The notes beneath the pieces are model-generated. The model had not been told where the DNA came from, searched no databases, and saw only the letters and a list, made by a program, of their open reading frames with translations. This document shows positions 10,782-27,816 of a DNA stretch of 32,000 nt, piece after piece. A program made the position numbers and the translations under genes. The stretch spans positions 1,290,001-1,322,000 of the forward strand of contig NC_014033.1 of the NCBI RefSeq assembly GCF_000025925.1, given 5' to 3'. This DNA is from Xylanibacter ruminicola 23 (GTDB lineage Bacteria > Bacteroidota > Bacteroidia > Bacteroidales > Bacteroidaceae). Numbering within the stretch: position 1 is the first letter of the stretch; the number at the start of each line of letters is the position of its first letter.

Positions 10782-10819
10782 TCTATAATTTTGTTCCGTT
10801 GTTATCAGCGTTCAGGGTG

Positions 10820-11153: not shown

Positions 11154-12383
11154 ATGTCAAGAAGCACATTCAACATTCTCTTCTATGCCAACAAGAGCAA
11201 GGAGAAAAACGGAATTGTCCCTATCATGGGACGAGTAACAATCAACGGAACGCAGTCGCAGTTCAGTTGTAAGAAGAATATCCCACTGGCCATGTGGGAT
11301 GTAAAGGGTAATTGTGCCAAGGGAAGAAGCAAGGAGGCTTTGCAGATTAACCGTGACCTTGATAATATCAAAGCGCAGATTATCAAGCATTATCAGCGTC
11401 TGTCTGACCGCGAGGGATTCGTAACGGCTGAGATGGTAAGAAATGCATATCAGGGATTGGGCAGCGAGTATGAAACGCTGCTCGGAGCCTTTGATAAAGA
11501 TATTGCCAATCTGAAACGTCGTGTAGGCAAGGACAGGGCAGAAGGGACCTACAAGATACAGATGAGGTCGAGGAACTACATTGCAGATTTCCTTCGAACA
11601 AATTACAAGCGGAACGACATTGCCATGCAAGAACTGACACCTGACTTTATCAAAGAGTTCAGTGTGTACCTTAGCAATGAACGCGGCTTGGCGCATTCCA
11701 CCATCTGGCTGTCGTGCATGCACCTGAAGGGAGTGGTAGGCAGAGCACATGATAATGGCAAGATACAGCGCAATGTCTTCGCACAGTTCCATATCAGCCC
11801 CAAATGCAAGGAACGCACATTCCTGACAGAAGAAGAGTTAAAGACGGTGATGACACATGAGTTTGAAGATGCCAATCTCGCCTTTATCCGCGACCTGTTC
11901 GTATTCATGAACTTCACGGCACTATCTTTCGTGGACTTGAAGGAACTGACTACGGACAACATTGTAGAGATAGACGGTGACAAGTGGATAATTGGCAAGC
12001 GTCACAAGACCGACGTACCCTATCAAGTGAAGCTGTTAGACGTTCCACTGCAAATTATCGAGCGTTACAGCAACTTCCCCAAGGAGAATCCGAAGTCAGT
12101 ATTCGGTGAGGTCAATTACTGGAGTGTCTGCAAGAAACTGAAGACGGTCATGAAGGAATGCGGTATAGACAAGCCTATCTCCGCTCACTGTGCAAGACAC
12201 GGCTTTGCCACAATGGCCTTAACCAATGGCATGCCCATAGAGAGCGTGAGCCGTGTACTGGGTCATACGAACATTGTCACAACTCAGATTTATGCCCGCA
12301 TCACGACCAAGAAGCTGGATAATGACCTGACAATGTTGGGTAACAAGCTTAACGCATCATTCAGTAACATCAAAACAGCATAG
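11154..12383 (+). CDS. tyrosine site-specific recombinase / integrase (Bacteroides mobile-element type)
   Basis: N-terminal arm-binding-like region (FNILFYANKSKEKNGIVPIMGRVTINGTQSQF). C-terminal catalytic motifs HCARHGFAT and LGHTNIVTTQIYARI (the R-H-R-Y family). Confidence 0.93.
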   Translation: MSRSTFNILFYANKSKEKNGIVPIMGRVTINGTQSQFSCKKNIPLAMWDVKGNCAKGRSKEALQINRDLDNIKAQIIKHYQRLSDREGFVTAEMVRNAYQGLGSEYETLLGAFDKDIANLKRRVGKDRAEGTYKIQMRSRNYIADFLRTNYKRNDIAMQELTPDFIKEFSVYLSNERGLAHSTIWLSCMHLKGVVGRAHDNGKIQRNVFAQFHISPKCKERTFLTEEELKTVMTHEFEDANLAFIRDLFVFMNFTALSFVDLKELTTDNIVEIDGDKWIIGKRHKTDVPYQVKLLDVPLQIIERYSNFPKENPKSVFGEVNYWSVCKKLKTVMKECGIDKPISAHCARHGFATMALTNGMPIESVSRVLGHTNIVTTQIYARITTKKLDNDLTMLGNKLNASFSNIKTA

Positions 12384-12387
12384 ACAC

Positions 12388-12762
12388 ATGGAACAGAGAA
12401 ACATCATTGAGTGGAGTGAGCATAGTGAGTACAGGGAACTGACTATACCGAGTGGAGAGATTTGGATGAGCGAGTCCGAACTGGTTGACCTTTTCGGAGT
12501 GTTCATCCCGAAACTAAGGAACACCATCCAAACACTCTACAAAGAGGAACTGGTGAAACCCTATGAGACAGAGCGGACTATCAAACAAAGCCGAAACCTG
12601 TACCTCACCGTATATAACATGGAGTTGGTTCTGTTACTTGCCTTCCGTCTTAACTCTTATCAGGCAAGGGCTGTCCGCAAGGAACTGATGGTACGAATTG
12701 AACGAGACCACAAGCCGTTTGAGGTGATATTTACGAATGTAGGCCGTAAACAATTCCAATAA
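12388..12762 (+). CDS. hypothetical protein, possibly ORF6N/RhuM-like DNA-binding
   Basis: Starts 4 nt after the integrase stop. The segment LYLTVYNMELVLLLAFRLNSYQARAVRKEL resembles the YNLDxIISVGYRVxSxxxxxFRxW core I recall from RhuM/ORF6N proteins. The similarity is weak. Confidence 0.4.
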   Translation: MEQRNIIEWSEHSEYRELTIPSGEIWMSESELVDLFGVFIPKLRNTIQTLYKEELVKPYETERTIKQSRNLYLTVYNMELVLLLAFRLNSYQARAVRKELMVRIERDHKPFEVIFTNVGRKQFQ

Positions 12763-12784: not shown

Positions 12785-12824
12785 TTGTTGCCAGTTTACT
12801 TCTATATGGAGGAACTGGCAACAA
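12785..12824. terminator. perfect 12-bp hairpin between convergent genes (terminator of the Abi/helicase operon)
   Basis: TTGTTGCCAGTT (12785-12796) pairs perfectly with AACTGGCAACAA (12813-12824) around a 16-nt loop. It lies immediately after the 948-aa ORF stop (12827-12829). Confidence 0.6.
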
Positions 12825-12826
12825 TT

Positions 12827-15673
12827 CTATTTCTCAATAATAGAGGCTAATAAATTCGTGGCTATCTCAGCATTCTTGAATCTAATGAGATTGTCTTCAA
12901 TAGAGTGGTAACCAAGGATGTTGACGCTGCCATACCATATAATGCTCTTGTCGATAATAGCAGTATGTAGGGAAAGACGGTCAATTGTGATAATCTGCAT
13001 CCCTTGATGTAGCAAACGAAGAGTATCATCGTTCTCTTCTTTTGTATAGAGTACAATTTCTATTCCATTTGCAGTTAAATCAATAAGTCGCTCTGCTATT
13101 TGTGTGTTCCTACCAATCTTTACTCTGGGACATGAAATAACTATAGAACGTTTGCACTGAGTCAAGTCTGAGATAAATGGTTGCACGAAGTTCTGACCAT
13201 CATAGATTAAGTCTGCTGTTGGGAACAGACTTTCAAACATCTCATTATTTCTGATTCTATAGCCGATTGAGGCATATCCTTTCAGACGTTTACGATACAT
13301 GGATTCGCAAACAGGAACTCGTATGTCGATATAGTCATAGACTTGCACATCCTTTTTCCCCTCAAACTCACGATGCAGTCGGCCAGTGTATTGTTGTAGT
13401 CTGCCTTTCCATGCTATGGGCGATACCAGAAACAGCGTATCGAGACGGGCATAGTCAAAGCCCTCGCCGACATACTTGCCTGTGGCAATAATAACAAGTG
13501 GCTCAGTGGAAGGAATAGAATGCAGTTGCTCCATCTTCTGGCGTTTCTCCTTGATGCTTTCAGAACCAACAAGAGTAATCACGTTAGGGCAGTGAGGTTT
13601 CAGAAGTTCTGCCAATATTGTAACATGCAAAGTCCTGTCAGTTAATATTATTGGCGAACGACCTTCTTTTTGGGCCTCAATAACATCCTTGACGATAAAC
13701 AAATTACGATATTCGTCTTCTGACAGTTGCTGAGCGACCTGAGTAAACGAAAGGGCTTCACCACTTACAGGTCTGAATGGAGTAAACCGAGGCACAAGCA
13801 ACCGCTGGAAGGTCTGGTTCTGCATCTGGGCTTTGGCATCAGTAGCATATCTGATCGGGCCACATTGCATGAAGAGAACGGGGTGATGCCCGTCTTTGCG
13901 AAATGGTGTCGCAGTCAGACCATATACATATCGGGCGTTTACAGCCTTCAAAACTTGTTCGTAATTTACAGCCGATATATGATGACATTCATCAGCTATG
14001 ACCATACCGTAGTCTTTCACAAAGGATTTTACTTCGTTATCCGTCATGCACGATTGCAAAAGGGCTATGTCGATGATACCGTGAAGCCTGTTTCCTGCTG
14101 ACGAAAGAGTACCAATAGGCGAAAGAACTTTTTTCCGTCTGTGTTTTCCAACCTCAACTTCAGGAACATCGTCTATTACAAGAAATTGCTCCAATCTCTG
14201 AACCCATTGGTCAAGTAAGGCTTTGGTATGAACCAATATCAGAGTGTTTACGCCATGCTTGGCAATAAGAGCAATACCTGTCGTCGTTTTTCCGAAAGCA
14301 GTCGTTGCAAAGAGCACACCTGTGCTATTTGCAGCCAAAGCATTAACCGCCTCTTGCTGATTATCCCGGAGTGTGCCGATGAAATGAACAGAAATAGGTC
14401 TGCCGTGATTAGTCTTGTCATCGTAGCGATAAGTAACTCCTTTCTCTTTAAGCAATGTAGTGACGACATCCTCACATCCACGAGGCAAAGCAAGATACTC
14501 ATCCGTTAAGTCAGCACACGAAATGATACGTGGTGTTGAATAGGTGGAGAGTCGCATTGCCTGTTTGCTATAGAATTCAGGATTGCGGAATGAGGCGATA
14601 CGTCTGAGGTGGTTAAGAACCTTTGATGACAATTGGCTCAATGGTATATAGAGCATATTCGAACGAGTGATAACAACCTCTGACGAGAAGTCTGATTTTT
14701 CAATCTTGGTTGCAACGGGGACTTCCCAAGGCTTGATCTCGCTAGTCTTTGATAATTCGCCAAGTGGAAGGATGTTAGAAGTCTGCCTCAATATCATTTC
14801 CAACGCATCCTCTGAGAGTTTCTTCACATTCAATAAATACTCCCATTGATCATCGTATGGCTCGAAATATTCATTCACAAACACACTGTTACCTTTTTTG
14901 CGAGCATTGCCTTGTAAGGGAAGGGCTACAAGATTACCAAAACCTCCCTCTGGCAATGTGTCCTGATTAGGAAAGAATCTGTCATATGACTTGAAATCAA
15001 TCTTCCCGTTTCTATTCATTGCTTCTGTAAGGATGGCATTACCCAATCTTCTGGCTTTCACCGCCAGTACAGGAGTCCCAAAGAATATCCACACATGAGC
15101 ACCATTGCCAGAACGGGAACGCTCGACTGAACAAGGAACGCCCCAACTCTTACACACATCGACGAATGCCAATACGTCTTCCTGATAGCCGTGTTCACAG
15201 TTCTTGTCATCAAAGTCGGTGCATAACAGGTTGCATGTATTATCCTCCTTGAGGACATATAGGCCAATAACATCTTCACCATTGACATTCTTTCCTTCCA
15301 AGTGATGGTAAAAGTCATCGTATGTCAATGGCAAGAACTGACGATTTGGGCATTCTGCACATTTATGAGCTTTCTTGTCGCAAAGCAGACGGTTCCACTC
15401 ATTCTGACAAACAGGCTGATAACCAGACTTACCGCTTGCTTTGCTATACCAGCGTCTGGCGAAGACATCCTCACGTCCTTTGAACAGATTCCGAAACAGT
15501 TCAATCTTTTCCTGTAGCGACAATTTTTGCATGGCTGTCGGCTCCTGAACAGCAGGCACAAAATCTTCACCAAGTCGTTTCCTCAACTCGGCATTTTCGA
15601 CTTCCAGCTTCCTGATTCGTTCAAGAAGTTGTTGCCGTTCAGCCATCCACTCCTGATAATTCTCTAATGGCAT
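12827..15673 (-). CDS. fusion protein: coiled coil + 4-Cys + archaeo-eukaryotic primase (PrimPol-like) + SF2 DEAH helicase + degenerate PLD-like C-terminal domain
   Basis: aa 8-35: heptad-like QQLLERIRKLEVENAELRKRL. Cys residues at 89, 98, 105 and 108 (CxxC). AEP motifs TDFDD (DxD, aa 153-155) and SGNGAHVW (aa 188-195). Helicase motifs AFGKTT (Walker A, aa 459-464), DECHH (aa 561-565), LTATP (aa 586-590) and QYTGRLHR (motif VI, aa 761-768). The C-terminus LHTAIIDKSIIWYGSVNILG resembles an HKD motif but lacks the Lys at +2. It resembles proteins I recall being annotated as a TOTE conflict system AEP-domain protein; I could not verify this. Confidence 0.85.
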   Translation of the reverse strand: MPLENYQEWMAERQQLLERIRKLEVENAELRKRLGEDFVPAVQEPTAMQKLSLQEKIELFRNLFKGREDVFARRWYSKASGKSGYQPVCQNEWNRLLCDKKAHKCAECPNRQFLPLTYDDFYHHLEGKNVNGEDVIGLYVLKEDNTCNLLCTDFDDKNCEHGYQEDVLAFVDVCKSWGVPCSVERSRSGNGAHVWIFFGTPVLAVKARRLGNAILTEAMNRNGKIDFKSYDRFFPNQDTLPEGGFGNLVALPLQGNARKKGNSVFVNEYFEPYDDQWEYLLNVKKLSEDALEMILRQTSNILPLGELSKTSEIKPWEVPVATKIEKSDFSSEVVITRSNMLYIPLSQLSSKVLNHLRRIASFRNPEFYSKQAMRLSTYSTPRIISCADLTDEYLALPRGCEDVVTTLLKEKGVTYRYDDKTNHGRPISVHFIGTLRDNQQEAVNALAANSTGVLFATTAFGKTTTGIALIAKHGVNTLILVHTKALLDQWVQRLEQFLVIDDVPEVEVGKHRRKKVLSPIGTLSSAGNRLHGIIDIALLQSCMTDNEVKSFVKDYGMVIADECHHISAVNYEQVLKAVNARYVYGLTATPFRKDGHHPVLFMQCGPIRYATDAKAQMQNQTFQRLLVPRFTPFRPVSGEALSFTQVAQQLSEDEYRNLFIVKDVIEAQKEGRSPIILTDRTLHVTILAELLKPHCPNVITLVGSESIKEKRQKMEQLHSIPSTEPLVIIATGKYVGEGFDYARLDTLFLVSPIAWKGRLQQYTGRLHREFEGKKDVQVYDYIDIRVPVCESMYRKRLKGYASIGYRIRNNEMFESLFPTADLIYDGQNFVQPFISDLTQCKRSIVISCPRVKIGRNTQIAERLIDLTANGIEIVLYTKEENDDTLRLLHQGMQIITIDRLSLHTAIIDKSIIWYGSVNILGYHSIEDNLIRFKNAEIATNLLASIIEK

Positions 15674-15678
15674 AGATA

Positions 15679-16713
15679 TTATAACACCATTTGCCGGAAT
15701 CGATTTTGTAACTCTTCAAGCCGCTTTAACAGTGCATCAAAGTCCAAAGGATTGCCATAGATAAAACTCGACTTCATGTTCTCGTAGTCACTACGGAATC
15801 TGTTTTGTATTTCGCCAACGGGACAAAACGAAATCTTGTCTGGCATATCCAGTGAATAGTCAACGCCACCGACATGATAGAACTTTTTGCGATGCTCCAC
15901 AATCTCGGTATATAGAAGCACATTCTGCAATGCAGATCTCGCGTATTCTGTATCCATCAGTTTCTCCAAGTCGTAGAGGTGTCGGCTCATGCGAAGTGTT
16001 CTGGGATGTCTGCGCTGGTATTCTTCATTCAAGAGAAAGGCTTTCTCAAGAAAGGTGCGCGATGGGGATATGGTAGCAATATCGGTCATTGTCTCACCGT
16101 CATCATCCTTGAACTCATCAGAAATCAACGAAGAAATATGCTTCACCTCAAATGGTTCTTTCATTGACAGACAACTGATCTCAATTTTCACCACGGGCTT
16201 CACATATGAATGACCGGAATTAAAGATGCTGGGATAATGTACCAATAGCACTGTCGGGTCTGCGTCATGGTCAATAGGCTTTTCACCCTCTGCAGTCATG
16301 TGAGTTGTGACTGCTTCCACTTTCACGTTAAAACCTATACTTTCCAGTTTCTTTTCAAGTTCATTTTTCAGTTCACCATGTACGAAGTCACGTGATGCTT
16401 TTCGTAGCATCTTTATCTGGTTGTTGTTCTCGCATCTGGCACACGCAACACCTTTTTCTATTAGGAAGAAGTCACGATATAGAGCAATGTCGATGTCTTC
16501 ACTGAATCGGTTGATGATGTTCCAGCCCTTGCTCAGACTTGTACCTCCCTTGAAATAAGTGTACTTTGATGTGCTCAGTTCGAACAATGCCTTTAATACG
16601 GTTGTCACCCACCAATCTTTTTCTACCGATTCTTGGTCGATGTTCTTCAAGTCCGATATACGGTTGACCATATAAAGACGGTCTGCCAAGTTGTTATCTA
16701 TCCATCTACTCAT
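15679..16713 (-). CDS. abiEii: AbiEii/AbiGii-family nucleotidyltransferase toxin (DUF1814)
   Basis: YFKGGTSLSKGWNIINRFSEDIDIALY is the GGTxL ... RxSxDID nucleotidyltransferase signature of AbiEii. The 344-aa size fits. Its start overlaps the stop of the upstream AbiEi-like gene by 8 nt. Confidence 0.85.
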   Translation of the reverse strand: MSRWIDNNLADRLYMVNRISDLKNIDQESVEKDWWVTTVLKALFELSTSKYTYFKGGTSLSKGWNIINRFSEDIDIALYRDFFLIEKGVACARCENNNQIKMLRKASRDFVHGELKNELEKKLESIGFNVKVEAVTTHMTAEGEKPIDHDADPTVLLVHYPSIFNSGHSYVKPVVKIEISCLSMKEPFEVKHISSLISDEFKDDDGETMTDIATISPSRTFLEKAFLLNEEYQRRHPRTLRMSRHLYDLEKLMDTEYARSALQNVLLYTEIVEHRKKFYHVGGVDYSLDMPDKISFCPVGEIQNRFRSDYENMKSSFIYGNPLDFDALLKRLEELQNRFRQMVL

Positions 16714-17311
16714 GGTTAATCTCTTTTTTCAGAGTTGTTACTATCTTTCGAATCCAGGCAGGTGCAAGTTGCAAATCCTTCTGCCATGTCTTTTCTTCGG
16801 GATGCTCTGTCAACAATTTGCGTATGATGCCGATATGTTCGTCTGTCAGGTCTTCTTTGCCAATAGCCTTCAGTGCCTGTACAAGAACGGGCATCAACTC
16901 ACCTTTATAGGCAAAGTTCTTGGGAACGCTACGCCTGAGCCGGATAGTACGATTCCCTAATTTGATCTCCCTTGCAGAGCCACTGGTTATGTACTCCGAA
17001 TTCATAGGTACTTGTGTTGACAGACCTAACAGATTCATGGCCGTGTTGCCTGTTGGCAGGATCTTGGCTTTGTCGCGTTTAGCGATAGCCTTTATGATGT
17101 CGCCCACAGGAGGAAAGACAACGCCAAACTTGCTCCGCATAGGCTTGACATAGATTCCGTAGGAGATTCGCGAAATCAGTTCCTGTCCACATAACTCAGA
17201 CAATATCTGTCTTACATAGACATCATCATAATTCGGGAAACTGTTGTTGAAAAACAGACTTCCGTCCTGACTTCTGTTAATCACATTTATAATATGCTCT
17301 TTTACTGTCAT
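16706..17311 (-). CDS. abiEi: AbiEi-family (DUF6088-like) antitoxin / transcriptional regulator
   Basis: The 201-aa product has an N-terminal wHTH-like region (VRQILSELCGQELISRISYGIYVKP) and GNTAMNLLGLSTQVP, as I recall for DUF6088/AbiEi proteins. It sits immediately upstream of AbiEii and overlaps it. Confidence 0.75.
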   Translation of the reverse strand: MTVKEHIINVINRSQDGSLFFNNSFPNYDDVYVRQILSELCGQELISRISYGIYVKPMRSKFGVVFPPVGDIIKAIAKRDKAKILPTGNTAMNLLGLSTQVPMNSEYITSGSAREIKLGNRTIRLRRSVPKNFAYKGELMPVLVQALKAIGKEDLTDEHIGIIRKLLTEHPEEKTWQKDLQLAPAWIRKIVTTLKKEINHE

Positions 17312-17375: not shown

Positions 17376-17383
17376 CAAAGATA
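17376..17383 (-). promoter_or_regulatory. Bacteroidetes -7 promoter box (TATCTTTG) for the AbiEi-AbiEii-AEP/helicase operon
   Basis: The reverse complement of caaagata matches TAnnTTTG about 65 nt upstream of the AbiEi ATG at 17311. Confidence 0.45.
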
Positions 17384-17516
17384 ATACATTTTTCTTAAAT
17401 GAGAGCAATGTAGAACATATTTTTTTCTGGGGGAATGATAGAAAGAAGGATTTTCCATGCCATTCCAAGTGAAATGACACAGAAAATCCAAAGAAAAGAC
17501 AAGAACAAACATTTTT

Positions 17517-17828
17517 CTAATCTTTACGGTATGCAGGATGGTAACATTCCTCTAACAGCTTTTCAAGGTCACTCTCACGATAGAGCACCTTTCCACCTAA
17601 CTTGATGTAAGGTACAATGCCGCTGTCACGATACTCCTGCAATGTGCGACGGCTTATCTTCAGGCGGTGCGACACCTCCAAATCCGACAAGTACCGCTCT
17701 CCGTTCAACAAAGGACGATAATTGTATGTAACCTTGTCAAACAGCGTCTCAATCTCCTTCATCGACTTCATGGCATCCACCAAGCCGTCAGTTCTCAAAG
17801 TAATCAACTCTTTCAGATAATTCTCCAT
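17517..17828 (-). CDS. helix-turn-helix (excisionase/MerR-like, HTH_17-type) DNA-binding protein
   Basis: LKISRRTLQEYRDSGIVPYIKLGGKVLYRESDLEKLL is the typical excisionase-family HTH of Bacteroides mobile elements. Confidence 0.8.
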   Translation of the reverse strand: MENYLKELITLRTDGLVDAMKSMKEIETLFDKVTYNYRPLLNGERYLSDLEVSHRLKISRRTLQEYRDSGIVPYIKLGGKVLYRESDLEKLLEECYHPAYRKD

Positions 17829-17859
17829 GTTTTACTTTTGTTTATTATTCCATTCCACA

Positions 17860-18201
17860 CTAAACCATTACAGCCCCGTTGGTTCTGGGCTTTCGAGGCT
17901 TTCGCCATGCCGCATCCTTCTTCCTGTCTGCTACCACCCTCATGATGCTCTCTACATCCTCCGGCTTGTAATAAGTCTTGTGGCTAATCTGTGAATATGC
18001 CAGAGTGCCGTTGTCCCTCAACGTCTGCAACGTTCTCGGACTGATGCGCAACCTGTCGCATACCTCCTGATTATCCATCCACTCGCCCAGACGCTTGTCT
18101 GAGCCTCGCTTACCCATCTCCATCATCTTCTTGACGAAGTGATCAAACTTCCCTGCGAACTTCTCGTAGGCATCTTTTTCGATATTCACAATCTCCATCA
18201 T
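17860..18201 (-). CDS. helix-turn-helix (excisionase/MerR-like) DNA-binding protein, paralogue of the previous gene
   Basis: LRISPRTLQTLRDNGTLAYSQISHKTYYKPEDVESIM is the same HTH family. It lies in tandem with 17517-17828. Confidence 0.8.
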   Translation of the reverse strand: MMEIVNIEKDAYEKFAGKFDHFVKKMMEMGKRGSDKRLGEWMDNQEVCDRLRISPRTLQTLRDNGTLAYSQISHKTYYKPEDVESIMRVVADRKKDAAWRKPRKPRTNGAVMV

Positions 18202-19360: not shown

Positions 19361-19888
19361 ATGACAGCAAAAAAGACCAAGAATGTGCCTCCGACAAAGG
19401 AAGAAGACGAGGCATTGAGAACCTTCATGTATGGTGACAGACTTCGCTCATCTATCAGCATGGAAGAACGCTACCCAGATCTTGAAGAGAGCGATAACTC
19501 CGCCATCTCCACTGACACTAATGCAGTGATTCCACCCCCTACAACAGAAGAAGCCCAAGGCCAAGAAACTTCACCAAAGAATGAACAAGAGGAAGAACCA
19601 GAGCCGAAGCCTGTTTCTTTTCCTGCTGGTAAGCAGTCACCTGCCCACCGTGTCAGCAGCAAGCAGCGTAGACTTTCACTCGATGAGTATGGCACCGTCT
19701 TTCTCCCTGTACCCAAGATTGACCACCCAAAGCCCGTGTTCATCAGCGAGTCACTACGCGACGAACTTGACAAGGTGGCACGTAGGCTCGGAGGCAAGCG
19801 GATGAGTGCATCAGGCATCGTAGAGAACATGGTCAAGCACCACTTAGGCATCTATGGGGAGGATATGGAACAATGGTTTAAACTGTGA
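19361..19888 (+). CDS. DUF3408-like protein of Bacteroides mobile elements (disordered acidic N-terminus, RHH-like C-terminus)
   Basis: The C-terminal LSLDEYGTVFLPVPKIDHPKPVFISESLRDELDKVARRLGGKRMSASGIVENMVKHHLGIY matches my memory of DUF3408 proteins found next to mob genes. Confidence 0.65.
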   Translation: MTAKKTKNVPPTKEEDEALRTFMYGDRLRSSISMEERYPDLEESDNSAISTDTNAVIPPPTTEEAQGQETSPKNEQEEEPEPKPVSFPAGKQSPAHRVSSKQRRLSLDEYGTVFLPVPKIDHPKPVFISESLRDELDKVARRLGGKRMSASGIVENMVKHHLGIYGEDMEQWFKL

Positions 19889-19966
19889 GCGATAAGACTG
19901 GAGTCTGTGACCAGACAGGCGTGGTTTGACACCGAAGGTGGCACAATCGTCTGGAAACTACGTTTT

Positions 19967-20019
19967 GAGTGCGGCGAGGTTATGTTTTCGGCATCCCGAA
20001 AACGACCTCGCCCGCACTC
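19967..20019 (+). other. long interrupted hairpin, candidate oriT
   Basis: GAGTGCGGCGAGGT ... ACCTCGCCCGCACTC form a 14-bp outer stem with a one-C bulge. They enclose a perfect GTTTTCGG-CATC-CCGAAAAC inner hairpin. The structure lies 77 nt upstream of the MobC-type gene and is followed by CAGTC repeats. Confidence 0.45.
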
Positions 20020-20095
20020 CCGTTGCGAGGGAAATCCGCTCCCCACTGGTCGCAGATTCAGTCAGTCCAGTCACTAAAGTGAATACACTGAAGCA

Positions 20096-20485
20096 ATGAT
20101 AATTACAGGCACTCAAAACACGAAGAAGCACGGAGGCAGACCGACAGTTGCTGAAGCAAGACGGTTGACAAGGGCAGTCACGGTCAAGTTCTCCAAGAAG
20201 GATTACGAAATCCTGAAAGTCAGGAGCAAGAAGGCAAATAAACACATGGCCGAGTACATCCGAGACTCTACCCTAAACCCTGATGTAGCACAGAAGCCTT
20301 TAGAGGCGGTAACAAAGGACTACCGTATGCTTGTAGGCATGGCGAACAACCTCAACCAACTCACGAAGATGGCTCACCAAGAAGGAATCATATATCTGTA
20401 TGTTCCGTTAAACAGTCTGCTGGGTGACATCAGCCATATCGTAAGAGAGTATAAACAGGACGCCGACAAAAAGAGAAAAAGATGA
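20096..20485 (+). CDS. MobC-family relaxosome accessory protein (called MobA in Bacteroides mob operons)
   Basis: YRMLVGMANNLNQLTKMAHQEG is the NLNQ(I/L) motif of the bacterial mobilisation protein MobC family. The N-terminus is RHH-like. Its stop overlaps the relaxase start by 4 nt (ATGA). Confidence 0.8.
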   Translation: MIITGTQNTKKHGGRPTVAEARRLTRAVTVKFSKKDYEILKVRSKKANKHMAEYIRDSTLNPDVAQKPLEAVTKDYRMLVGMANNLNQLTKMAHQEGIIYLYVPLNSLLGDISHIVREYKQDADKKRKR

Positions 20486-21468
20486 TAGGAAAGATTATGA
20501 AGGCTGCATCGTTCAAGCGGTGCGTCCAATACGTGACAGGCAAGGAAGATGCGAAAATCCTTGCCTCCGACGGTGTGTTGCTGATGTCAACGCAGGACAT
20601 CATTGACAGCTTTGAGTTCCAGCGGCAGTTGAATCCCAGGATCTCCAAACCCGTAGGCCATATCGCTCTGAGCTTTCTGCCAAAGGACAAGGACAAACTG
20701 ACAGACGAGATGATGGCCCGGATAGCAATGGAATATATGGAACTGATGGGCATCAAGGACACTCAGTTTATCCTTGTCCGCCACTTTGATAATGGCAATC
20801 CCCACTGCCATCTGGTCTATAACCGTATCAACAACGAGGGCAAGACCATCTCAGACCAGAACGATTTTAGACGGAACGAACAGGTGACGAAACTGCTTAA
20901 ACGGAAGTACGGACTCACTTTTTCCAATGGCAAGGGAACCACTAAAACCGAGCGATTAAGAGGAAATGAAAAGACGAGATACGAGGTTTATCACATTATT
21001 ATGAACACACTGGCACAGGCCACTTCATGGCGAGAATTCACAGATGAACTAAAGCGAAACGGTGTTACGATGGACATTGTGATGAAGAAAGATGGAAGTA
21101 CTAAGATTGCCGACATACAGGGTCTTCGCGTCACCAAAGACGGTAAGGCCTTCAAGGCTTCGCAGATTCGAAGAGGAATGACATACACAAAGATGGACAA
21201 TATTCTGAAGAGGAATGCACATAAGGAACAGGATACCAAAGCCTCTTGTCAGCAGCAGACAGGCCAAAGCGAACAACCCAGGCAAGCACAAAGACCAGAA
21301 CAAAAAGAACATCATGAAGAGTCTCAGCAGCACTCTTCCAGTTCATCCATTCCTATTCCATCATTGGGATTGTTCGATACAACTAATCCTGTCTATGACC
21401 CAGAAGATGAAGCCTTTCGTCGCCAGATGCAGCGTAAGAAAAAGAAGACGAGTCAATTAAAATTGTAG
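20482..21468 (+). CDS. relaxase / mobilization nuclease
   Basis: VGHIALSF near the N-terminus and the His-triad-like RHFDNGNPHCHLVYNRI are typical of the relaxase/mobilisation nuclease domain. The C-terminal tail is Q/S/E-rich and low-complexity. Confidence 0.88.
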   Translation: MIGKIMKAASFKRCVQYVTGKEDAKILASDGVLLMSTQDIIDSFEFQRQLNPRISKPVGHIALSFLPKDKDKLTDEMMARIAMEYMELMGIKDTQFILVRHFDNGNPHCHLVYNRINNEGKTISDQNDFRRNEQVTKLLKRKYGLTFSNGKGTTKTERLRGNEKTRYEVYHIIMNTLAQATSWREFTDELKRNGVTMDIVMKKDGSTKIADIQGLRVTKDGKAFKASQIRRGMTYTKMDNILKRNAHKEQDTKASCQQQTGQSEQPRQAQRPEQKEHHEESQQHSSSSSIPIPSLGLFDTTNPVYDPEDEAFRRQMQRKKKKTSQLKL

Positions 21469-21469
21469 T

Positions 21470-21499
21470 AATGAGGATAGGGGGCGTTTGTCCCTCATT
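21470..21499 (+). terminator. weak hairpin after the relaxase gene
   Basis: AATGAGG (21470-21476) pairs with CCTCATT (21493-21499) around a 16-nt loop. It is followed by CTTTGT, with no strong T-run. Confidence 0.3.
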
Positions 21500-21618
21500 C
21501 TTTGTAATGTCTTATAGTAATGCCATTTTTATCATCAGCTATCAATTGCAACATGTCATTTCTATTTCTTTCCCTTTTATATTATATGTTATGCCATATT
21601 TGCCATGTCCGCAACTAT

Positions 21619-23682
21619 TTACAATTTCCCTTTTAATATAGCACTCTCACTACCAACAGAATTGTACCTGTATGAACGAGTTACCTTTTTCCCATATTCA
21701 AATGTATATACTACTTTTATTGATGCATTTTGATTATATGTTTGATTATTGTTTGAATATGAAAAAGAATATACATCAGACACCGCAGAGCTAGTTACCT
21801 CTCGATGCATAAAGAATAGATTATTTATATTTGTTTTCAAAGAAAGCATTTTATAGTCCCATCCTATCGTTATTGAATATTGCCATGGAATCTTCTGGAT
21901 GATTTGGTTGTTAACAATCTGTTTTTGAGGAGTATTCACTACGAAAGATGCGTACAAGTCTTTTCTTGACACGTCTACTTGAAAGTTGCTCCACAATGTA
22001 TGCACACTTTCACTGACATCACCTGCCAATTTCGTATGTTTATAGCCTCCGTTTATTTTTATATTAATTTTAGTTGATGGTTTGTAAACAGCAGATAAAT
22101 CAAGTGAAGTCCGTTGATATCTGTTTTCGCTGGAAAAAGTATTAATGAGGTTGTCTCCATCGTAATGATAAACATTGGCAATTGCGTGATTTATATAATA
22201 GTATTGGAAGTTTGAGGAAAAAGACATATTGTCGAGACTCCAGTTGTAACTAATTCTAGGCATCAGAAGGATGCTGTTGTCCATTTTCGGATTCCCACGA
22301 CGAATCATAATACGATCTATCCGCTGTTCCGCATTATTTATTGTATTGGGACTAGGATATGTATTCCCTAATGCTAATGATAATTGCAATCTTTTTTTCT
22401 TGCTAATCATATATGCACCCATCAAATTAAGTCGAGGAGTTAAATGGCTTATAGATGGGCTTCCTGACAATTGATATGTCATATAAGAAAGTCCTGGATG
22501 AATATTTAATAGTATATTTCCATATATTCTTTTAGAATAATCAGCAAATAAAATTGTTTCAGAGGAATATAGATGCTGTTTCCTATTTTCACTTAATTCA
22601 TAAGCAATTTGACTATTTCTAAAATATTCATGCAAGCTGAATGTTATACTGCTCTTATCTTTCAGTGAGATACTGTAATTCGCATTAATTTTGGTATATA
22701 AATAGTCCTCTGAAGCATTTGACTGGAATGTGTAGTCCAATTCATCATAGTACCTTTCGTATTTACGCTTTGAATAGTAACCGTCAAGAACCACATCTAT
22801 ATGTCTAGAATCAGAAATATCTTTTGAATAATATAAATATGTCGTCGGTTTAACGTATCTCTCATTTTCTTTTTTTAAAAATCTTGCGGATGGGTATGTA
22901 GAAGAGTAAGAAATAAAGCCTTCATTGGTATCTTTACCTGTTTTTTGGCGTTCGATGCCAGCCCTTATCATCCACATCTGCTTTTTATCAATTTTGCTGA
23001 TACTTGCAATCCCATACAAGTTTTCCAGACGATTATTTAGAGAGTAACTGCTATTCTTGATTAAGTTTCCTGTTTTGAAATTTACATATCTTTCAGCCTC
23101 TTCATCATTGTCATTTAAACCACAAACATTGTATCCGCCCCATACATTAATATTATAATTGTTGAAAGAGTATTTTGAAACAAGATTGTAATCACCAATA
23201 AGATAGCCAATGCCTTGTTTACCTTCCAGCAAAGTATATCCTCCAGACGTAGGTTCTTTTAAAACAAAATTTATGGATGAGGCATCGATAGAATATTTTC
23301 CTGAAGGAGAATCAAAATACTCTATCTTTGCAACTTCTTTAGGTCGTAACGATTCTATCTCACGATAAGTAGCTTTACGTCCATTTATGTAGAGTGTTGC
23401 TTGCCCTGCTGGTGTAACAACTTCTCCTTTCTGATAATCAACAGACACATTCGGTATCATCATCCGATATAACAAGTCAAAACCACTATGTGTATGTTTA
23501 CGTTGTAACTCTGTTGGAATGCATATGATATGGTCATCTTCTAACACCAAATTATTTCCTTTAACAACGATTTCTTGTAACTGAATAATATGATTAATAG
23601 AATCATTGCCTGTTGTTTGCTGCTGTGCAGTTGCTGAATTTGTAGATAATAATGTTACAAATAATACTATAATATGTCTCAT
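21619..23682 (-). CDS. outer-membrane plug/beta-barrel protein (TonB-dependent-receptor-like, OMP_b-brl_3-like)
   Basis: Signal peptide MRHIIVLFVTLLSTNSATAQ. Plug-like LQEIVVKGNN ... ATLYINGRKATYREIESLRPKEVAKIEYF. A long region rich in Y, N and S with alternating hydrophobicity suggests beta strands. Its start overlaps the stop of the rSAM gene by 1 nt (TAATG). Confidence 0.7.
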   Translation of the reverse strand: MRHIIVLFVTLLSTNSATAQQQTTGNDSINHIIQLQEIVVKGNNLVLEDDHIICIPTELQRKHTHSGFDLLYRMMIPNVSVDYQKGEVVTPAGQATLYINGRKATYREIESLRPKEVAKIEYFDSPSGKYSIDASSINFVLKEPTSGGYTLLEGKQGIGYLIGDYNLVSKYSFNNYNINVWGGYNVCGLNDNDEEAERYVNFKTGNLIKNSSYSLNNRLENLYGIASISKIDKKQMWMIRAGIERQKTGKDTNEGFISYSSTYPSARFLKKENERYVKPTTYLYYSKDISDSRHIDVVLDGYYSKRKYERYYDELDYTFQSNASEDYLYTKINANYSISLKDKSSITFSLHEYFRNSQIAYELSENRKQHLYSSETILFADYSKRIYGNILLNIHPGLSYMTYQLSGSPSISHLTPRLNLMGAYMISKKKRLQLSLALGNTYPSPNTINNAEQRIDRIMIRRGNPKMDNSILLMPRISYNWSLDNMSFSSNFQYYYINHAIANVYHYDGDNLINTFSSENRYQRTSLDLSAVYKPSTKINIKINGGYKHTKLAGDVSESVHTLWSNFQVDVSRKDLYASFVVNTPQKQIVNNQIIQKIPWQYSITIGWDYKMLSLKTNINNLFFMHREVTSSAVSDVYSFSYSNNNQTYNQNASIKVVYTFEYGKKVTRSYRYNSVGSESAILKGKL

Positions 23683-24965
23683 TATTCCTTCTTAATTTGA
23701 TCCTCTGTATGCTTTATTATAAGTTCTTTTATGTATGCTTCACGTTTCGAGCAATAATCCTCTAAAAAAGAGTCTGCCGAGAAAATTCTCTTAAACGGAC
23801 ATCCTCCATCGCATATTGGGAAACAAAAACACTTTTTACATTTATCAGATTCCAAAGGGTCATTTGCTAAAAGATATTTTAAGCAAAGACTATTTAAATT
23901 TGAAAAATCAGAAATGTTGCCTATCTCTTTATCTTGTAATCCTATGTCATTCCAACATTTATAGAGTTCTCCAGATGGACCAATTACAAAACTATTCAAG
24001 TGTCTTGCGCTACATTCTCCAAATGAAGGCTTAGGATATAATGATATTGGGATACCATACAAATCATGTTGTTTAATTACGAAATTGCCCCTATCAGAAA
24101 AATCCATACAATTGCAATTGGCTTTTGAGGAAAAATCATCCGTAACATAGCCAGGGTGTATGTTTATCTTATAGTCATGGTATCTTCCTGTCATGAAATT
24201 ATACAGTTTATGGTATTCCTCAGAATTGGACTTGTCTATATTAACTCTTAACGCAACTCTGACATCAGGATACTTGAAGAACAAATTATCTATATTGTGA
24301 ACGATTCTCTTATAGCTGTCTGCATTTTTGTAATGGGGACGGCGTTTATTGTGAACTTGCTCTAATCCGTCTATGGTGATTTGCAATCCCATTATCTTTA
24401 GATGTTTCAGTTTTGAAATTTTCTCATCGTCAAGGAGATACCCATTGGTTATCATAAAGGCTTGATAATTAGGATACTCTTGCATAAACATCTTTGACAA
24501 CCTTTCAATAAATCCAAACTTCAGAAGAGGTTCCCCTCCATACCATGTAACTCTCAGATAATTTGTCTTCTTGAAAATTTTAGTAAACTTAATGATACTA
24601 TTTGCCATCTTTTCTTCGTCCAATACATTTTTACTTTTAATACCGGACTCATAACAATAAGAGCATCTAAAGTTACATGCAGTAGTAGGTGCGATTGTTA
24701 AGGATAAATAGTTCTTGTCATATCTTGCTAATGTCCTTTCCAATTTGATACGATTGTAGATGTTTATATCATTGTCGATGACAACATATTGCTTTTTCAA
24801 TTCTTCAAGAAAAGGCGACGCGACATCTGCAAATTCACCTTTTGCACAAGACTCTAATCTGTACTTGTCGTCAATATCAAAGCGCATCAGATTGTTTGTG
24901 TATGAATTATATAAGTAAATGTTACTACCTAATTCAAAAAGATAATTATATATTGACCAAATCAT
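23682..24965 (-). CDS. radical SAM/SPASM-domain peptide maturase
   Basis: APTTACNFRCSYCYE (CxxxCxxC). WYGGEPLL. SPASM signatures GELYKCWND and CKKCFCFPICDGGC (Cx2Cx5Cx3C). About 95 aa precede the cluster (LYNSYTNNLMRFD), as expected for a peptide-recognition region. It lies directly downstream of a Cys-rich precursor gene. Confidence 0.88.
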   Translation of the reverse strand: MIWSIYNYLFELGSNIYLYNSYTNNLMRFDIDDKYRLESCAKGEFADVASPFLEELKKQYVVIDNDINIYNRIKLERTLARYDKNYLSLTIAPTTACNFRCSYCYESGIKSKNVLDEEKMANSIIKFTKIFKKTNYLRVTWYGGEPLLKFGFIERLSKMFMQEYPNYQAFMITNGYLLDDEKISKLKHLKIMGLQITIDGLEQVHNKRRPHYKNADSYKRIVHNIDNLFFKYPDVRVALRVNIDKSNSEEYHKLYNFMTGRYHDYKINIHPGYVTDDFSSKANCNCMDFSDRGNFVIKQHDLYGIPISLYPKPSFGECSARHLNSFVIGPSGELYKCWNDIGLQDKEIGNISDFSNLNSLCLKYLLANDPLESDKCKKCFCFPICDGGCPFKRIFSADSFLEDYCSKREAYIKELIIKHTEDQIKKE

Positions 24966-24989
24966 ACTTATATTTATTTCTGTTAATGT

Positions 24990-25036
24990 AAAAAAGAGGA
25001 AGCGTTAGGCAAATGCGTCGCCCAACGCGACCTCCT
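24990..25036 (-). terminator. hairpin plus U-run between precursor-1 and the rSAM gene (attenuator/partial terminator)
   Basis: On the minus strand, GCGTTGGGC ... GCCTAACGC form a 9-bp stem with one G-U pair. An outer GGAG/CTCC segment extends the stem, and TTTT follows. This arrangement resembles known RiPP operons that over-express the precursor. Confidence 0.5.
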
Positions 25037-25041
25037 AATGT

Positions 25042-25233
25042 TTAAGCCATATTGCCTTTGCAAGTACAGTCAGGATTACAATTCCAAGCATCGCAATCAC
25101 TCCAAGGATCGCAGTATTGCCGAAGTTCTTCTACTCTGTCTCCTCCAACAATGCCACCTAAAGCAGCATTCGTTAGACGATTTTCAAATGTAACATGTGC
25201 GTTACTTTTCTCAACGAAATCAATCTTTTTCAT
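25042..25233 (-). CDS. RiPP precursor peptide 1: double-glycine leader, Cys/Trp/Asp-rich core
   Basis: MKKIDFVEKSNAHVTFENRLTNAALGGIVGG | DRVEELRQYCDPWSDCDAWNCNPDCTCKGNMA. There are two GG motifs and five Cys in the last 23 residues. It lies 76 nt upstream of the rSAM/SPASM gene on the same strand. Confidence 0.75.
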   Translation of the reverse strand: MKKIDFVEKSNAHVTFENRLTNAALGGIVGGDRVEELRQYCDPWSDCDAWNCNPDCTCKGNMA

Positions 25234-25295
25234 CTTATTGAAGTTGAATTAATAAATTACATTATGGTGAAGCATTTTAAGTCATAACACCACGA

Positions 25296-25321
25296 TGACC
25301 CATATTTTGTGCACTAATATG
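25296..25321 (-). promoter_or_regulatory. conserved 26-nt element (copy 1) with palindrome CATATT-n-GTGCAC-n-AATATG upstream of precursor-1
   Basis: TGACCCATATTTTGTGCACTAATATG (plus strand) is identical to 29020-29045. It sits 62 nt upstream of the precursor ATG and 2 nt after the stop of the preceding gene. Confidence 0.6.
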
Positions 25322-25323
25322 CT

Positions 25324-27816
25324 TTATATGTTAAACAGTATTCTGCATAAGAAATCCCTTGGCCTCATCTGGTTTAGGACGATGATGTCGGTATAGTCGG
25401 TGGTGTAGTGACGGCGGTAGTTGCGTGTGCCGAAGAGGTTAGAGCATAAAAGTCCTGCCTCGAAGGTCTTGGCGCGATAGGATATGGAGAGATCGCTGAA
25501 ATAATTGGTAGAAACGGATTTATCGTTACTATGATAGAGTTCATTCGTCCATTCTATCTGCCATTTGCCTGGCAATATGAACACTTTTAACTCATGGTTC
25601 CACGATTGAAGTGCATTTGTCATCGACTGGTGGCTGTAGTGGTAAGCAGACTCTTCCTCTATGGAGAGCCAGCGAGTAGGCTTCAATGAGAACCGCAGCG
25701 AGGCTCTACCGTTGCGGGTATGCTGACGAGCAAGAGAGTGATTGATCAGCAGGTCGTAATTGGTCCATGAGTAACTTCCGTTCAGTGTTATACTGAGCTT
25801 TGCCCAAAAGATGGATTTTCCCAAACTGCCAGAAAGGCTATAGGTCTCACGGTTCTGACGGAAATCGGTAGCCTGACGAATATAGACATTATTCACAAGA
25901 TGACTCTGATAGATAACGGCATCACGCAGATTGCTGTAACCAGATGTGAATCTACTGAACATACCTGTCATCACATTACGATAGCCTAATCCTATATTTG
26001 CCGTTTGTCCCGTGGTGTTTTCAAACTGTCCTGAGCCTTGCTGACAAGAGATGTAATCGGTGTAATAAGGCTGACAGGTGATAGTGGTGATGTCGCTGGG
26101 AGTCCATCGGTAACTGTAACTGCCGCTGATCTCAAGTTTGGAAGTCAGACTGTAGCGGATGAAAAGGCGCGGCTCGGCAAGGAAATTCTGGCTGTTCTTC
26201 TTCTGATACTGACGCATGAGCCAACTAAGCCGCCCGTTCAGGCTGATGGTCCATGCTCCTTCACGATAACTGATTGACGGCTCCACGTATGGCAGGTATT
26301 CACTGTAGCGGTCTTTGTTGTTCAGTGTCAGCCACTGCGTTTTTGTTTCAAAACCTGCCTGCCATGTCACTTTTAACTGCTTGATGCTGTGTTGATAATA
26401 GGCGTATGCATTCCAATATAGCATTTGTTGAGTGATTTGCTGAGTGCTGTCATTGGTTAGAAGTAACGTGCCTGGCAGATAACTGTAACTAAACAATGAG
26501 GTGACGGAATAACTTTGCCCATTCTTCAGTTTATTGATGAGTTCGAGGTTATCCACGATGTATCGTTTGCGAGGCTCAACCCATTGAGGCGTCGGGCGTT
26601 CGTTTAATATTGAAAGTCCCTCATTCTTGTTAAAGTCAATATAGCCTTTTAGTGTGTTCGACAGATATTGTTTATCGTGGTTTGCCTTATAGAGCAGTTC
26701 TGCCTGCCATTCGCTACGGGTACTTGTTGCTGTCTGTTCCTCAGTGATAATGGCAGAGTCGGCATCCAGATAGACGGTCTGCCTGTCCTGTTGCTGTCGG
26801 CTCCGGTCATAAAGCCCTGTCACTTGCAGTTTCAGATCATCGTCCTTTTTCGTCTTGAACAGCCAGTTGGTGGCGGCAATATAGGTATCATTGAACTTGC
26901 TCCTTCTCGCATCGAGACTTGGTGCCCCCAGATTAATATTGTTCAATATACCATCCTCTGTAGGAGCAGTCTTGTCGAACTGCGTCAAATCGGCAACTTC
27001 GTGCTCAATATCCTTGCCAGTATTGTTGGCCTTTACCATCGAAATGCTCTGCTTTTTGCGTCCAAATACCATCTCCAGCCATTGAGCATCGCGCAACCAG
27101 TCGTCGCCATAACCTGTAGCCACATCTATCACACCCTGCCATACATTCTTAGCTTCGTCTTTCAGTACCAGATTGAGTGCAGCCTGTTCAGAGAACTTTA
27201 TATCTTTGAGAACTTTCACGGGTTGATGATTCTCATATACCTGTACGCTCTTCACTTTGTCAGCTGAAAGGTTTTCACTCGCCATCGCATACTTACCACC
27301 CAGCAAGTCCATTCCTTCTATATAGAACTTGTTGATAGCCTTGCCCTGATACCTGATAGTACCTGATGGGAGAACTTCCAATCCCGGCATTTTAGCTATT
27401 ACATCGGCTATCGAACGGTCCTGTTTCAGTTTAAAGGATTCTACGGAATAGGTCAGCGTGTCGCCTTGCTCGCGGATGCGCTGTGGCGTTACTTTCACTT
27501 CCTTTAAGGCAATGGCCTGTTCTTGCATCTTGATGGTCTGGCCATTCTTATAATCTTTCAGCGGAATCACCACCTTGCCAAAGCCCATCATCAGAAACTC
27601 AACACTCTTCGCCTCTTTCCCTTGCGGAATGGTCAACGAGAAATGTCCATCCTGCCTAGCCCTTGCAAATGCAACGACAGAGCCGCCATCCCCTTTTGCC
27701 ACGACGGAGGCAGACACAAGCGGTTTCCCACTCTTGTCCGTCACCCGCCCTGTGAAGGTCTGCGCTTTACCAGTGAGAGAGACTAATATAATAAGGTATA
27801 GCAGCAAACGCTTCAT
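25324..27816 (-). CDS. outer-membrane plug/beta-barrel protein with N-terminal carboxypeptidase-regulatory-like domain
   Basis: Signal peptide. FTGRVTDKSGKPLVSASVVAKGDG is CarboxypepD_reg-like. Plug-like LKEVKVTPQR...IADVIAKMPGLEV...IRYQGKAINKFYIEG. Followed by about 600 aa of barrel-like sequence. Its start overlaps the GLPGLI gene stop by 4 nt. Confidence 0.75.
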   Translation of the reverse strand: MKRLLLYLIILVSLTGKAQTFTGRVTDKSGKPLVSASVVAKGDGGSVVAFARARQDGHFSLTIPQGKEAKSVEFLMMGFGKVVIPLKDYKNGQTIKMQEQAIALKEVKVTPQRIREQGDTLTYSVESFKLKQDRSIADVIAKMPGLEVLPSGTIRYQGKAINKFYIEGMDLLGGKYAMASENLSADKVKSVQVYENHQPVKVLKDIKFSEQAALNLVLKDEAKNVWQGVIDVATGYGDDWLRDAQWLEMVFGRKKQSISMVKANNTGKDIEHEVADLTQFDKTAPTEDGILNNINLGAPSLDARRSKFNDTYIAATNWLFKTKKDDDLKLQVTGLYDRSRQQQDRQTVYLDADSAIITEEQTATSTRSEWQAELLYKANHDKQYLSNTLKGYIDFNKNEGLSILNERPTPQWVEPRKRYIVDNLELINKLKNGQSYSVTSLFSYSYLPGTLLLTNDSTQQITQQMLYWNAYAYYQHSIKQLKVTWQAGFETKTQWLTLNNKDRYSEYLPYVEPSISYREGAWTISLNGRLSWLMRQYQKKNSQNFLAEPRLFIRYSLTSKLEISGSYSYRWTPSDITTITCQPYYTDYISCQQGSGQFENTTGQTANIGLGYRNVMTGMFSRFTSGYSNLRDAVIYQSHLVNNVYIRQATDFRQNRETYSLSGSLGKSIFWAKLSITLNGSYSWTNYDLLINHSLARQHTRNGRASLRFSLKPTRWLSIEEESAYHYSHQSMTNALQSWNHELKVFILPGKWQIEWTNELYHSNDKSVSTNYFSDLSISYRAKTFEAGLLCSNLFGTRNYRRHYTTDYTDIIVLNQMRPRDFLCRILFNI

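Follow-up and report, generated by a model that had tools for sequence, protein, structure and literature searches.

A likely shared operon of an AbiE toxin-antitoxin pair and an IS-excision-enhancer-like PrimPol-helicase gene on a Prevotella mobilizable element

We analysed a 32,000-nucleotide stretch of Xylanibacter ruminicola 23 (contig NC_014033.1, positions 1,290,001 to 1,322,000; hereafter the window), in which three adjacent minus-strand genes encode an AbiEi antitoxin, an AbiEii toxin and a 948-aa protein of the family of IEE, the Escherichia coli enhancer of insertion sequence (IS) excision. We think it probable that the locus consists of two autonomous modules, the AbiE pair and the IEE-like gene, which would be co-transcribed from the AbiEi promoter and under AbiEi control, with the large protein retaining IEE-like biochemistry and no direct interaction between the two. 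Since both parts are also found singly in close relatives, we read the locus as a shuffled pairing and not as a new three-part defence system. In the scenario we propose, a Prevotella integrative mobilizable element would carry the operon as cargo and thereby join the two modules: the IEE-like open reading frame (ORF) would be a single-gene cassette that lands repeatedly behind varied conflict-type genes and, having landed here 5 nt behind abiEii, would depend for its transcription on the promoter that AbiEi presumably autorepresses. AbiE may further stabilise the element as an addiction module, while the IEE-type enzyme may act on DNA intermediates of other mobile DNA, for example those of copy-out-paste-in IS transposition, its archaeo-eukaryotic primase (AEP) polymerase filling in and joining DNA ends at microhomologies and its superfamily 2 (SF2) ATPase gripping, holding or remodelling the DNA.

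The operon and its flanking signals are laid out as follows.

16706..17311, minus strand: AbiEi antitoxin/repressor of the DUF6088 type, 201 aa (Pfam DUF6088 1.9e-46; PADLOC AbiEi 1.5e-60)
15679..16713, minus strand: AbiEii nucleotidyltransferase toxin, 344 aa (Pfam AbiEii, PF08843/DUF1814, 1.1e-31; PADLOC AbiEii 1.3e-96)
12827..15673, minus strand: IEE-family (IS-excision-enhancer-like) PrimPol-helicase, 948 aa (blastp against O157:H7 IEE; Pfam AEP-TOTE, ResIII)
17376..17383, minus strand: Bacteroidetes-type -7 promoter box TAtcTTTG, ~65 nt 5' of the AbiEi ATG
17448..17489, minus strand: terminator-like hairpin, 19 pairs then TTCTTTCT (consensus scan; inverted-repeat search)
12785..12824, no strand given: 13-bp perfect hairpin, with the convergent IEE-like and orf124 genes on either side

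As read from the sequence, the AbiEi stop and the AbiEii start have ATGAGTAG in common, an 8-nt overlap, and the TAA of AbiEii is followed by TATCT and then by the ATG of the 948-aa ORF, a gap of 5 nt; neither junction leaves room for a terminator between the genes. These coordinates, the overlap, the gap and the promoter box are as an earlier, sequence-only reading of this DNA had given them. The TAnnTTTG consensus occurs at close to the expected frequency in the window (30 found, 23 expected), with most copies just 5' of genes, and no minus-strand copy lies between 10827 and 17376, the operon interior included; likewise, a scan of the operon for sigma-70 promoters and intrinsic terminators returned matches at chance level (14 sigma-70-like matches, 10.4 expected). 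The hairpin at 17489-17448, just downstream of the upstream HTH_17 gene, separates that gene from the promoter box and insulates the operon from upstream transcription. At the far end, the arms ATTGTTGCCAGTT/AACTGGCAACAAT form 13 perfect pairs at 12785-12824 (dG -19.4 kcal/mol, z = -6.2 vs shuffles), with no U-tract after the stem; this hairpin is likely a bidirectional terminator, and the earlier reading had placed it correctly while counting 12 pairs. A search for an AbiEi operator near the promoter found only short, weak inverted repeats and no clear operator. Given the tight junctions, one upstream box and none inside, and the terminal and insulating hairpins, the three genes very likely form a single transcription unit, in agreement with the sequence-only reading. 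Four metagenome contigs and Prevotella sp. ne3005, the latter with 95% DNA identity, have the identical layout.

The first two genes are, by homology, a standard type IV toxin-antitoxin / abortive-infection pair, with toxicity and autorepression predicted. The Pfam and PADLOC hidden Markov model (HMM) matches bear out identities that had previously been proposed from the letters, and the AbiEii translation contains the motifs GGT (56-58, G56-G57-T58) and DID (73-75, D73-I-D75). Close AbiEii homologues (73-80% identity) with an overlapping DUF6088 gene were stand-alone pairs among housekeeping neighbours in 4/4 sampled contexts, and since these homologues are two-gene modules in all four samples, the pair in the window is a normal AbiE module and the third gene an addition to it.

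The IEE-family protein and its C-terminal appendage

The 948-aa protein is, on sequence comparison, a full-length homologue and member of the IEE family: blastp against the O157:H7 IEE gives one high-scoring segment pair with 42% identity and 619 bits, covering query residues 18-807 and subject residues 8-777. The O157:H7 copy used here, from strain FRIK804, is a 786-aa coding sequence in which Y128, D142, D144, S171, Q175, G176, H178, D216, K451 and R735 are all present, and because these catalytic residues stand at exactly the published positions we take it to be IEE itself; every one of the listed residues is conserved in the 948-aa protein. Its domains are the following.

14795..15511, minus strand: AEP (Z1568-like / AEP-TOTE) polymerase domain, residues 55-293 (Pfam AEP-TOTE PF22548 4.9e-99)
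13322..14374, minus strand: SF2 (XPB/RadD-like) ATPase-helicase core, residues 434-784 (Pfam ResIII 4.8e-21)
12830..13240, minus strand: phospholipase D (PLD)/Nuc-like domain with a degenerate HKD motif, residues 812-948 (PLDc_2 2.9e-4; profile matches)

In the polymerase domain, the steric-gate Tyr (Y139), the DxD pair (D153, D155), the motif-B His (H193) and the motif-C Asp (D231) align with IEE Y128, D142, D144, H178 and D216, and the polymerase-site positions are invariant or nearly so across 34 diverse family members. The protein also has a CX8CX7CX2C motif at residues 89-109, and phmmer matches the AEP domain to CAPP (PDB 7nqd) at 1.6e-13. The ATPase core comprises a ResIII/DEAD match at residues 434-592 and a weak Helicase_C match at 662-768 (both Pfam), with Walker A at G461-K462-T463, motif II DECH at 561-564 and the arginine finger R765 in YTGRLHR; K462 in AFGKTTT aligns with K451 in the AFGKTVT of IEE, and YTGRLHR with the IEE sequence YAGRLHR, which contains R735.

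The sequence-only reading was right about this architecture (AEP-TOTE at 4.9e-99, ResIII/DEAD and a weak PLDc_2 match), and wrong in holding that AEP-helicase fusions lack experimental characterisation, because the 948-aa protein is homologous to IEE, which has been studied in E. coli O157 both genetically and biochemically. In the 786-aa IEE, residues 1-290 make up a Z1568-like AEP domain and residues 291-786 a helicase-like domain of SF2 type; the enzyme is an error-prone DNA polymerase dependent on Mn2+, carries out microhomology-mediated end joining (MMEJ) for which both domains are needed, and is a DNA-dependent ATPase without unwinding activity, the purified E. coli protein being active alone in vitro (PMC9943667). 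Genetically, it promotes the transposase-dependent excision of IS3-family elements; it is encoded on integrative elements, a pBR322 clone with the iee region only was made to supply it in trans, and the functions of its homologues outside E. coli were not analysed (PMC9397093).

The third domain is where the window protein departs from E. coli IEE. The PLDc_2 match is weak (2.9e-4) and spans positions 2-124 of the 132 in the profile, and a profile built from 17 diverse members matches NucT (6ehi, 1.1e-3), Nuc (1byr, 6.8e-3) and Zucchini (4ggj, 1.1e-2), as well as PLD1. The 948-aa protein does not have the catalytic HxK(x)4D(x)6GSxN motif: its counterpart reads S901-L-H903-AIID908-KSIIWY-G915-S-V-N918, with Ser for the catalytic His and His for the Lys, while D908, G915, S916 and N918 are retained. 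Nuclease activity is unlikely because of these two substitutions (S901 and H903), and the appendage is probably non-catalytic. The H903A mutant once suggested for this protein would not probe the catalytic His, because H903 takes the place of the Lys in HxK, that of the His being taken by S901. The textbook HxKx4Dx6GSxN is kept in several relatives, for example HQKFTLIDQSIVWYGSIN. Most family members carry this additional domain, and in the sample of 79 non-redundant long forms about one in four has it intact: H, K and D are all kept in 20/79, and 50/79 have lost H as well as K. The domain is wholly missing from a separate clade of ~800-aa proteins, to which E. coli IEE and the majority of plasmid copies belong.

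The family is large, with 2459 clusters at 50% identity (E < 1e-30). When an E. coli genome collection was searched with a homologue from an E. coli plasmid, an IEE-like gene was present in 876/5426 genomes, many of them O157:H7. Family members also occur on 115 plasmids, of which 49 are conjugative and 26 mobilizable, and on integrase-bearing islands; no full-length homologue was found in phages, and a phage origin was therefore rejected. In the PGAP/RefSeq annotation, IEE is labelled 'TOTE conflict system archaeo-eukaryotic primase domain-containing protein' or 'DEAD/DEAH box helicase' (FRIK804, L180:8001-10361, and the 876 genomes), and because only these TOTE-domain or helicase names are used, the annotation hides the link to the IEE literature. 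Relative to that literature, the PLD-bearing long form, the very wide distribution and the habitual position downstream of exchangeable toxin or ATPase cassettes, of which AbiE is one that recurs and to which we now turn, appear to be new.

What lies upstream of IEE-like genes

Three sets of loci were combined: close relatives and contigs, 80 metagenome loci (55-97% identity) and 80 GTDB species-representative loci obtained via a 34-member alignment. Classification of the same-strand upstream genes and removal of redundancy left 104 loci, of which 97 were assessable and 7 ended at a contig end. This is the homologue collection and upstream count that the sequence-only reading had called for, and it places AbiE/AbiEi at 7 of 104 non-redundant loci. 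The upstream slot was filled as follows.

AAA_14-DUF4143: 15/104 loci
ATPase_2: 10/104 loci
AbiEi with or without AbiEii, as neighbour: 7/104 loci
Schlafen/HATPase_c_4: 6/104 loci
DUF3307 plus helix-turn-helix (HTH) protein: 4/104 loci
AAA-ATPase_like-PDDEXK_9: 2/104 loci
Restriction-modification enzymes: 2/104 loci
RloB+AAA_21, HigB+HTH-M78, Abi_2 and RhuM-Fic: 1/104 each
Housekeeping genes: 4/104 loci
Unclassified ORFs: 22/104 loci
Fragments: 2/104 loci
No same-strand ORF within 300 nt upstream: 19 loci (19/97 assessable)
Not assessable, contig end: 7/104 loci

The gap between partner and IEE-like gene is often 1-6 nt or an overlap; values between -37 and +6 nt recur across many independent lineages. 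In a quick neighbour-joining tree without support values, changes of partner recur among Bacteroidales proteins of 72-84% identity, and the window lineage is a lone AbiE-linked twig amid ATPase-linked ones. When the window was compared by blastn with 13 differently partnered relatives, homology was found only inside the IEE-like ORF, both flanks being unrelated: it starts mostly 0-15 nt from the ATG, and within ~45 nt for all relatives down to ~72% DNA identity, or ~150-160 nt into the ORF for the more distant L103, L047 and L068, and it ends 15-30 nt from the stop.

Some of these cassettes have a layout of their own. In a clade of ~55% identity (L068, L104 and ~29 other loci; e.g. L068:4600-6000), a 230-aa DUF3307 membrane protein is encoded 5' of the IEE-like gene at a 3-nt gap, and 5' of it in turn, with an 8-nt overlap, lies the gene for a 223-aa protein with a C-terminal sigma-70 region-4-like HTH; the two form a toxin-antitoxin-like two-gene cassette filling the slot that AbiE holds in the window. 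At L147:3227-5089 an AAA-ATPase_like + PDDEXK_9 gene stands upstream, with a 241-aa ORF in between that overlaps the helicase start by 4 nt. At L150:8907-10484 a gene of the same kind lies directly downstream of the IEE-like gene with a 4-nt overlap, so that the partner is not strictly upstream.

AbiE or AbiEi adjoins IEE-like genes in ~5 separate lineages, with the AbiEi calls upheld by pairwise comparisons independent of the HMM seeds:

The window/ne3005 clade
L126 and L129/L130, Desulfobacterota-type long forms
L117 (Sedimentibacter)
L169, a short form
L111, a Bacteroidetes metagenome-assembled genome, with AbiEi downstream

The adjacency is thus not a one-off, and the suspicion that homologues of the large gene might essentially never be linked to AbiE elsewhere is not borne out. 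AbiEii is truncated to a stub or carries a frameshift in 3-4 of the 7 AbiE-linked loci, with AbiEi and the IEE-like gene both retained there; the stubs in L126, L169 and L111 are of 28-39 codons.

L126:2896-2988: AbiEii stub, residues 1-31, abutting the IEE-like ATG
L169:3331-3447: AbiEii stub, residues 5-43
L111:3643-3723: AbiEii stub, residues 158-185
L129:5038-5986: AbiEii, frameshifted

These loci suggest that the toxin has been lost and the repressor and promoter kept. An obligate three-component system, which the sequence-only reading had entertained, does not fit what was found across the loci: relatives of 72-84% identity have other cassettes, 19/97 assessable loci have no upstream partner, AbiE stands alone in 4/4 sampled contexts, and the toxin decays.

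Competing readings of the locus

Several observations weigh against two merely juxtaposed autonomous modules. The partners are overwhelmingly of conflict type, on the same strand and overlapping or 1-6 nt away, which looks like a selected operon partnership more than random adjacency. All AbiE matches in ~1.5 Mb of flanks are adjacent to the IEE-like gene, although the local AbiE HMMs were seeded from adjacent copies and are biased towards them, save one contig-edge fragment in L038; this fragment (L038:1-74) has 66 nt that are 88% identical to the AbiEi/AbiEii junction of the window, ~5.4 kb 5' of an IEE-like gene partnered with ATPase_2. IEE-like activity, furthermore, has been demonstrated only for the E. 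coli short form (PMC9943667). Finally, long forms with a dead HKD motif have a recognised upstream cassette in 38/52 cases versus 4/19 for those with an intact one (Fisher p = 1.1e-4), which hints at functional compensation; the correlation is phylogenetically confounded, and minus the Bacteroidales clade it is not significant (7/15 vs 4/19, p = 0.15).

These points find their natural place in a composite modular conflict system, which we consider rather unlikely, wherein the IEE-family PrimPol-helicase would be a constant sensor or processor, the swappable cassettes would be effector or licensing partners that possibly replace the decayed C-terminal PLD nuclease, and the AbiE version would be truly three-component. 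Such a system would account for the same-strand gaps of between -37 and +6 nt in many independent lineages, with the partner upstream in all linked loci except L111 and L150, for partners that are nearly all of Abi, toxin-antitoxin or ATPase-nuclease types, for the recurrence of AbiE/AbiEi next to the gene in ~5 lineages, and for the HKD comparison above, the loss of significance outside the Bacteroidales clade counting against it; Pfam and PGAP, too, label the AEP domain a conflict-system domain. The flanks point the same way, in that Ssp, Dnd, MADS, PARIS-like and type IV restriction genes are among the top 25 families listed when 150 flank proteins were compared with PADLOC as a control, and co-location within defence islands is a realistic null for the linkage. 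What speaks for autonomy is that IEE was supplied from a plasmid with the iee region only (PMC9397093) and is active alone as a purified protein (PMC9943667), that homology between loci is confined to the ORF, that about a fifth of assessable loci (19/97) have no upstream partner, that the same AbiE subfamily stands alone in all four samples, and that AbiEii has decayed in 3-4/7 of the very loci in which it is linked. We find slightly more doubtful still the wider proposition of a widespread, modular anti-mobile-DNA platform with IEE-family PrimPol-helicases as its invariable core, in which interchangeable upstream cassettes (AbiE, Abi_2, HigBA, RloAB, DUF3307 plus HTH, AAA_14-DUF4143, ATPase_2, Schlafen-like) would take over the role of a decayed PLD effector and DNA sensing or processing by the polymerase-ATPase would license AbiEii.

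Two further readings are considerably less probable. A coincidental juxtaposition without shared regulation, the large gene being driven by its own promoter inside abiEii, strikes us as improbable: the sigma-70-like matches inside the operon that would allow for it are at about chance level, and Bacteroidetes promoters are poorly modelled by the scans used, yet the 5-nt gap is too short for a terminator, the minus strand has no TAnnTTTG between 10827 and 17376, and an identical layout is found in ne3005 and the four metagenome contigs. Least probable of all, in our estimate, is that the AEP-helicase serves the element itself, as its primase or replicase or as a strand-establishment enzyme after excision or transfer, with AbiE as the addiction module. 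AEP PrimPols are common replicases of mobile elements, the family resides on 115 plasmids and integrase-bearing islands with no full-length member in phages, and domain scans revealed no other primase gene in the window element, all of which would suit such housekeeping. The helicase, however, is of the monomeric SF2 type (XPB/RadD-like) and E. coli IEE is an ATPase without unwinding; the related elements in L013 and L016 have, besides an IEE-like gene, a distinct primase set (AAA_25 + PriCT_2/DUF6371); the mobility of the ORF is independent of the element backbones; and some copies adjoin restriction-modification systems or housekeeping genes. The shuffled pairing of two autonomous modules under the AbiEi promoter thus remains the reading we prefer.

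The host element and relation to known systems

The operon lies on a Bacteroidales-type integrative mobilizable element of Prevotella, as had been recognised from the letters alone, and the genes around it are these.

11154..12383, plus strand: tyrosine integrase (Pfam Phage_integrase, Arm-DNA-bind_5, SAM_5)
12388-12762, plus strand: 124-aa ORF (orf124), its start 4 nt past the integrase stop, facing the IEE-like gene in convergent orientation
17517..18201, minus strand: two HTH_17 (excisionase-like) genes 5' of the operon (Pfam HTH_17 8.5e-12, 3.4e-9)
19361..21468, plus strand: mobilization module of DUF3408, a NikA/MobC-like gene and a MobA/VirD2-type relaxase

The product of orf124 has no Pfam, NCBIfam or PHROG match, and the gene is present in every copy of the element (L007-L010). 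The left end of the element lies at ~10811-10818, where homology breaks off relative to both L018 and L101, the latter being the cultured isolate Prevotella sp. ne3005 (NZ_FOCK01000003), whose operon region is 95% identical in DNA and whose IEE-like protein is 97% identical. No direct repeat of >=10 nt links the left end (~10811) to 21400-25400 as att sites would, and the right end was not found; because this boundary is missing, the claim that the three genes are the only cargo of the element is unproven, the more so as a 33%-GC radical-SAM/peptide cluster follows just past the relaxase. This island lies at 21619-25233 on the minus strand, in a layout that recurs in contigs L007 and L008. A 63-aa peptide whose features are a GG motif and a Cys-rich tail is encoded at 25042-25233, the radical SAM enzyme (Radical_SAM, Fer4_12) at 23682-24965, and a 687-aa protein without a family match at 21619-23682; the island looks like a maturation cluster for ribosomally synthesized and post-translationally modified peptides.

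IEE has been known almost only from pathogenic E. coli, where IS removal reshapes genomes. On mobilizable elements of gut and rumen Bacteroidales, an IEE-like gene routinely follows an exchangeable toxin or ATPase cassette. A functional pairing would constitute a new link between transposon control, toxin-antitoxin modules and defence islands and open a predicted 'conflict system' domain to biochemical study; a non-functional one would make the locus a clean case of single-gene cassettes shuffled into autoregulated toxin-antitoxin operons. The comparison also corrects an annotation gap, in that PGAP names IEE only as a TOTE-domain protein.

TOTE (TPR, OB, TBP, Effector) conflict systems were reportedly predicted by Aravind, Iyer and Burroughs in 2022, and the AEP domain of the window protein falls in the Pfam family named after them (PF22548, 4.9e-99, residues 55-293). 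Their defining components are a TPR-cold-shock-domain gene and a TBP-like gene (PMC12458937). Neither a TPR-S1/cold-shock-domain gene nor a TBP-like gene was found among the 17 scanned window proteins or in the sampled neighbourhoods, and since the TPR-CSD/OB and TBP components are absent, membership in a TOTE system was rejected. CAPP (PDB 7nqd/7nqf), represented in PADLOC by 'PrimPol, CAS-associated' (PDLC01465, 3.5e-87), has a related AEP fold and motifs, whereas in the window there is no CRISPR-Cas context and the AEP domain shares its polypeptide with an SF2 ATPase and a PLD-like domain. To the PLD nucleases Nuc, NucT and Zucchini the likeness is one of profile similarity, with about a quarter of the long-form relatives keeping the canonical motif.

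As for the two modules themselves, the AbiE pair resembles the described type IV system in having AbiEi 5' of AbiEii, a stop/start overlap, strong HMM matches and intact nucleotidyltransferase motifs, AbiEi being here of the DUF6088 subtype; AbiE is a self-contained two-gene module, whereas in the window a third, unrelated gene follows 5 nt on in the transcription unit. With IEE (Z1568 / ECs1305), the 948-aa protein shares the core order of AEP and then SF2 DExH ATPase, collinear over the whole of IEE, and both reside on integrase-bearing mobile islands. IEE lacks the ~140 extra C-terminal residues with the PLD/Nuc-like domain and degenerate HKD, and in O157 it is preceded, across a 154-nt gap, by YfjI and an inovirus Gp2-like gene, and by no toxin cassette; the 948-aa protein, in contrast, has a Prevotella host, stands last behind AbiEi and AbiEii, and is predicted to share the IS-excision and MMEJ activity of its E. 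coli counterpart.

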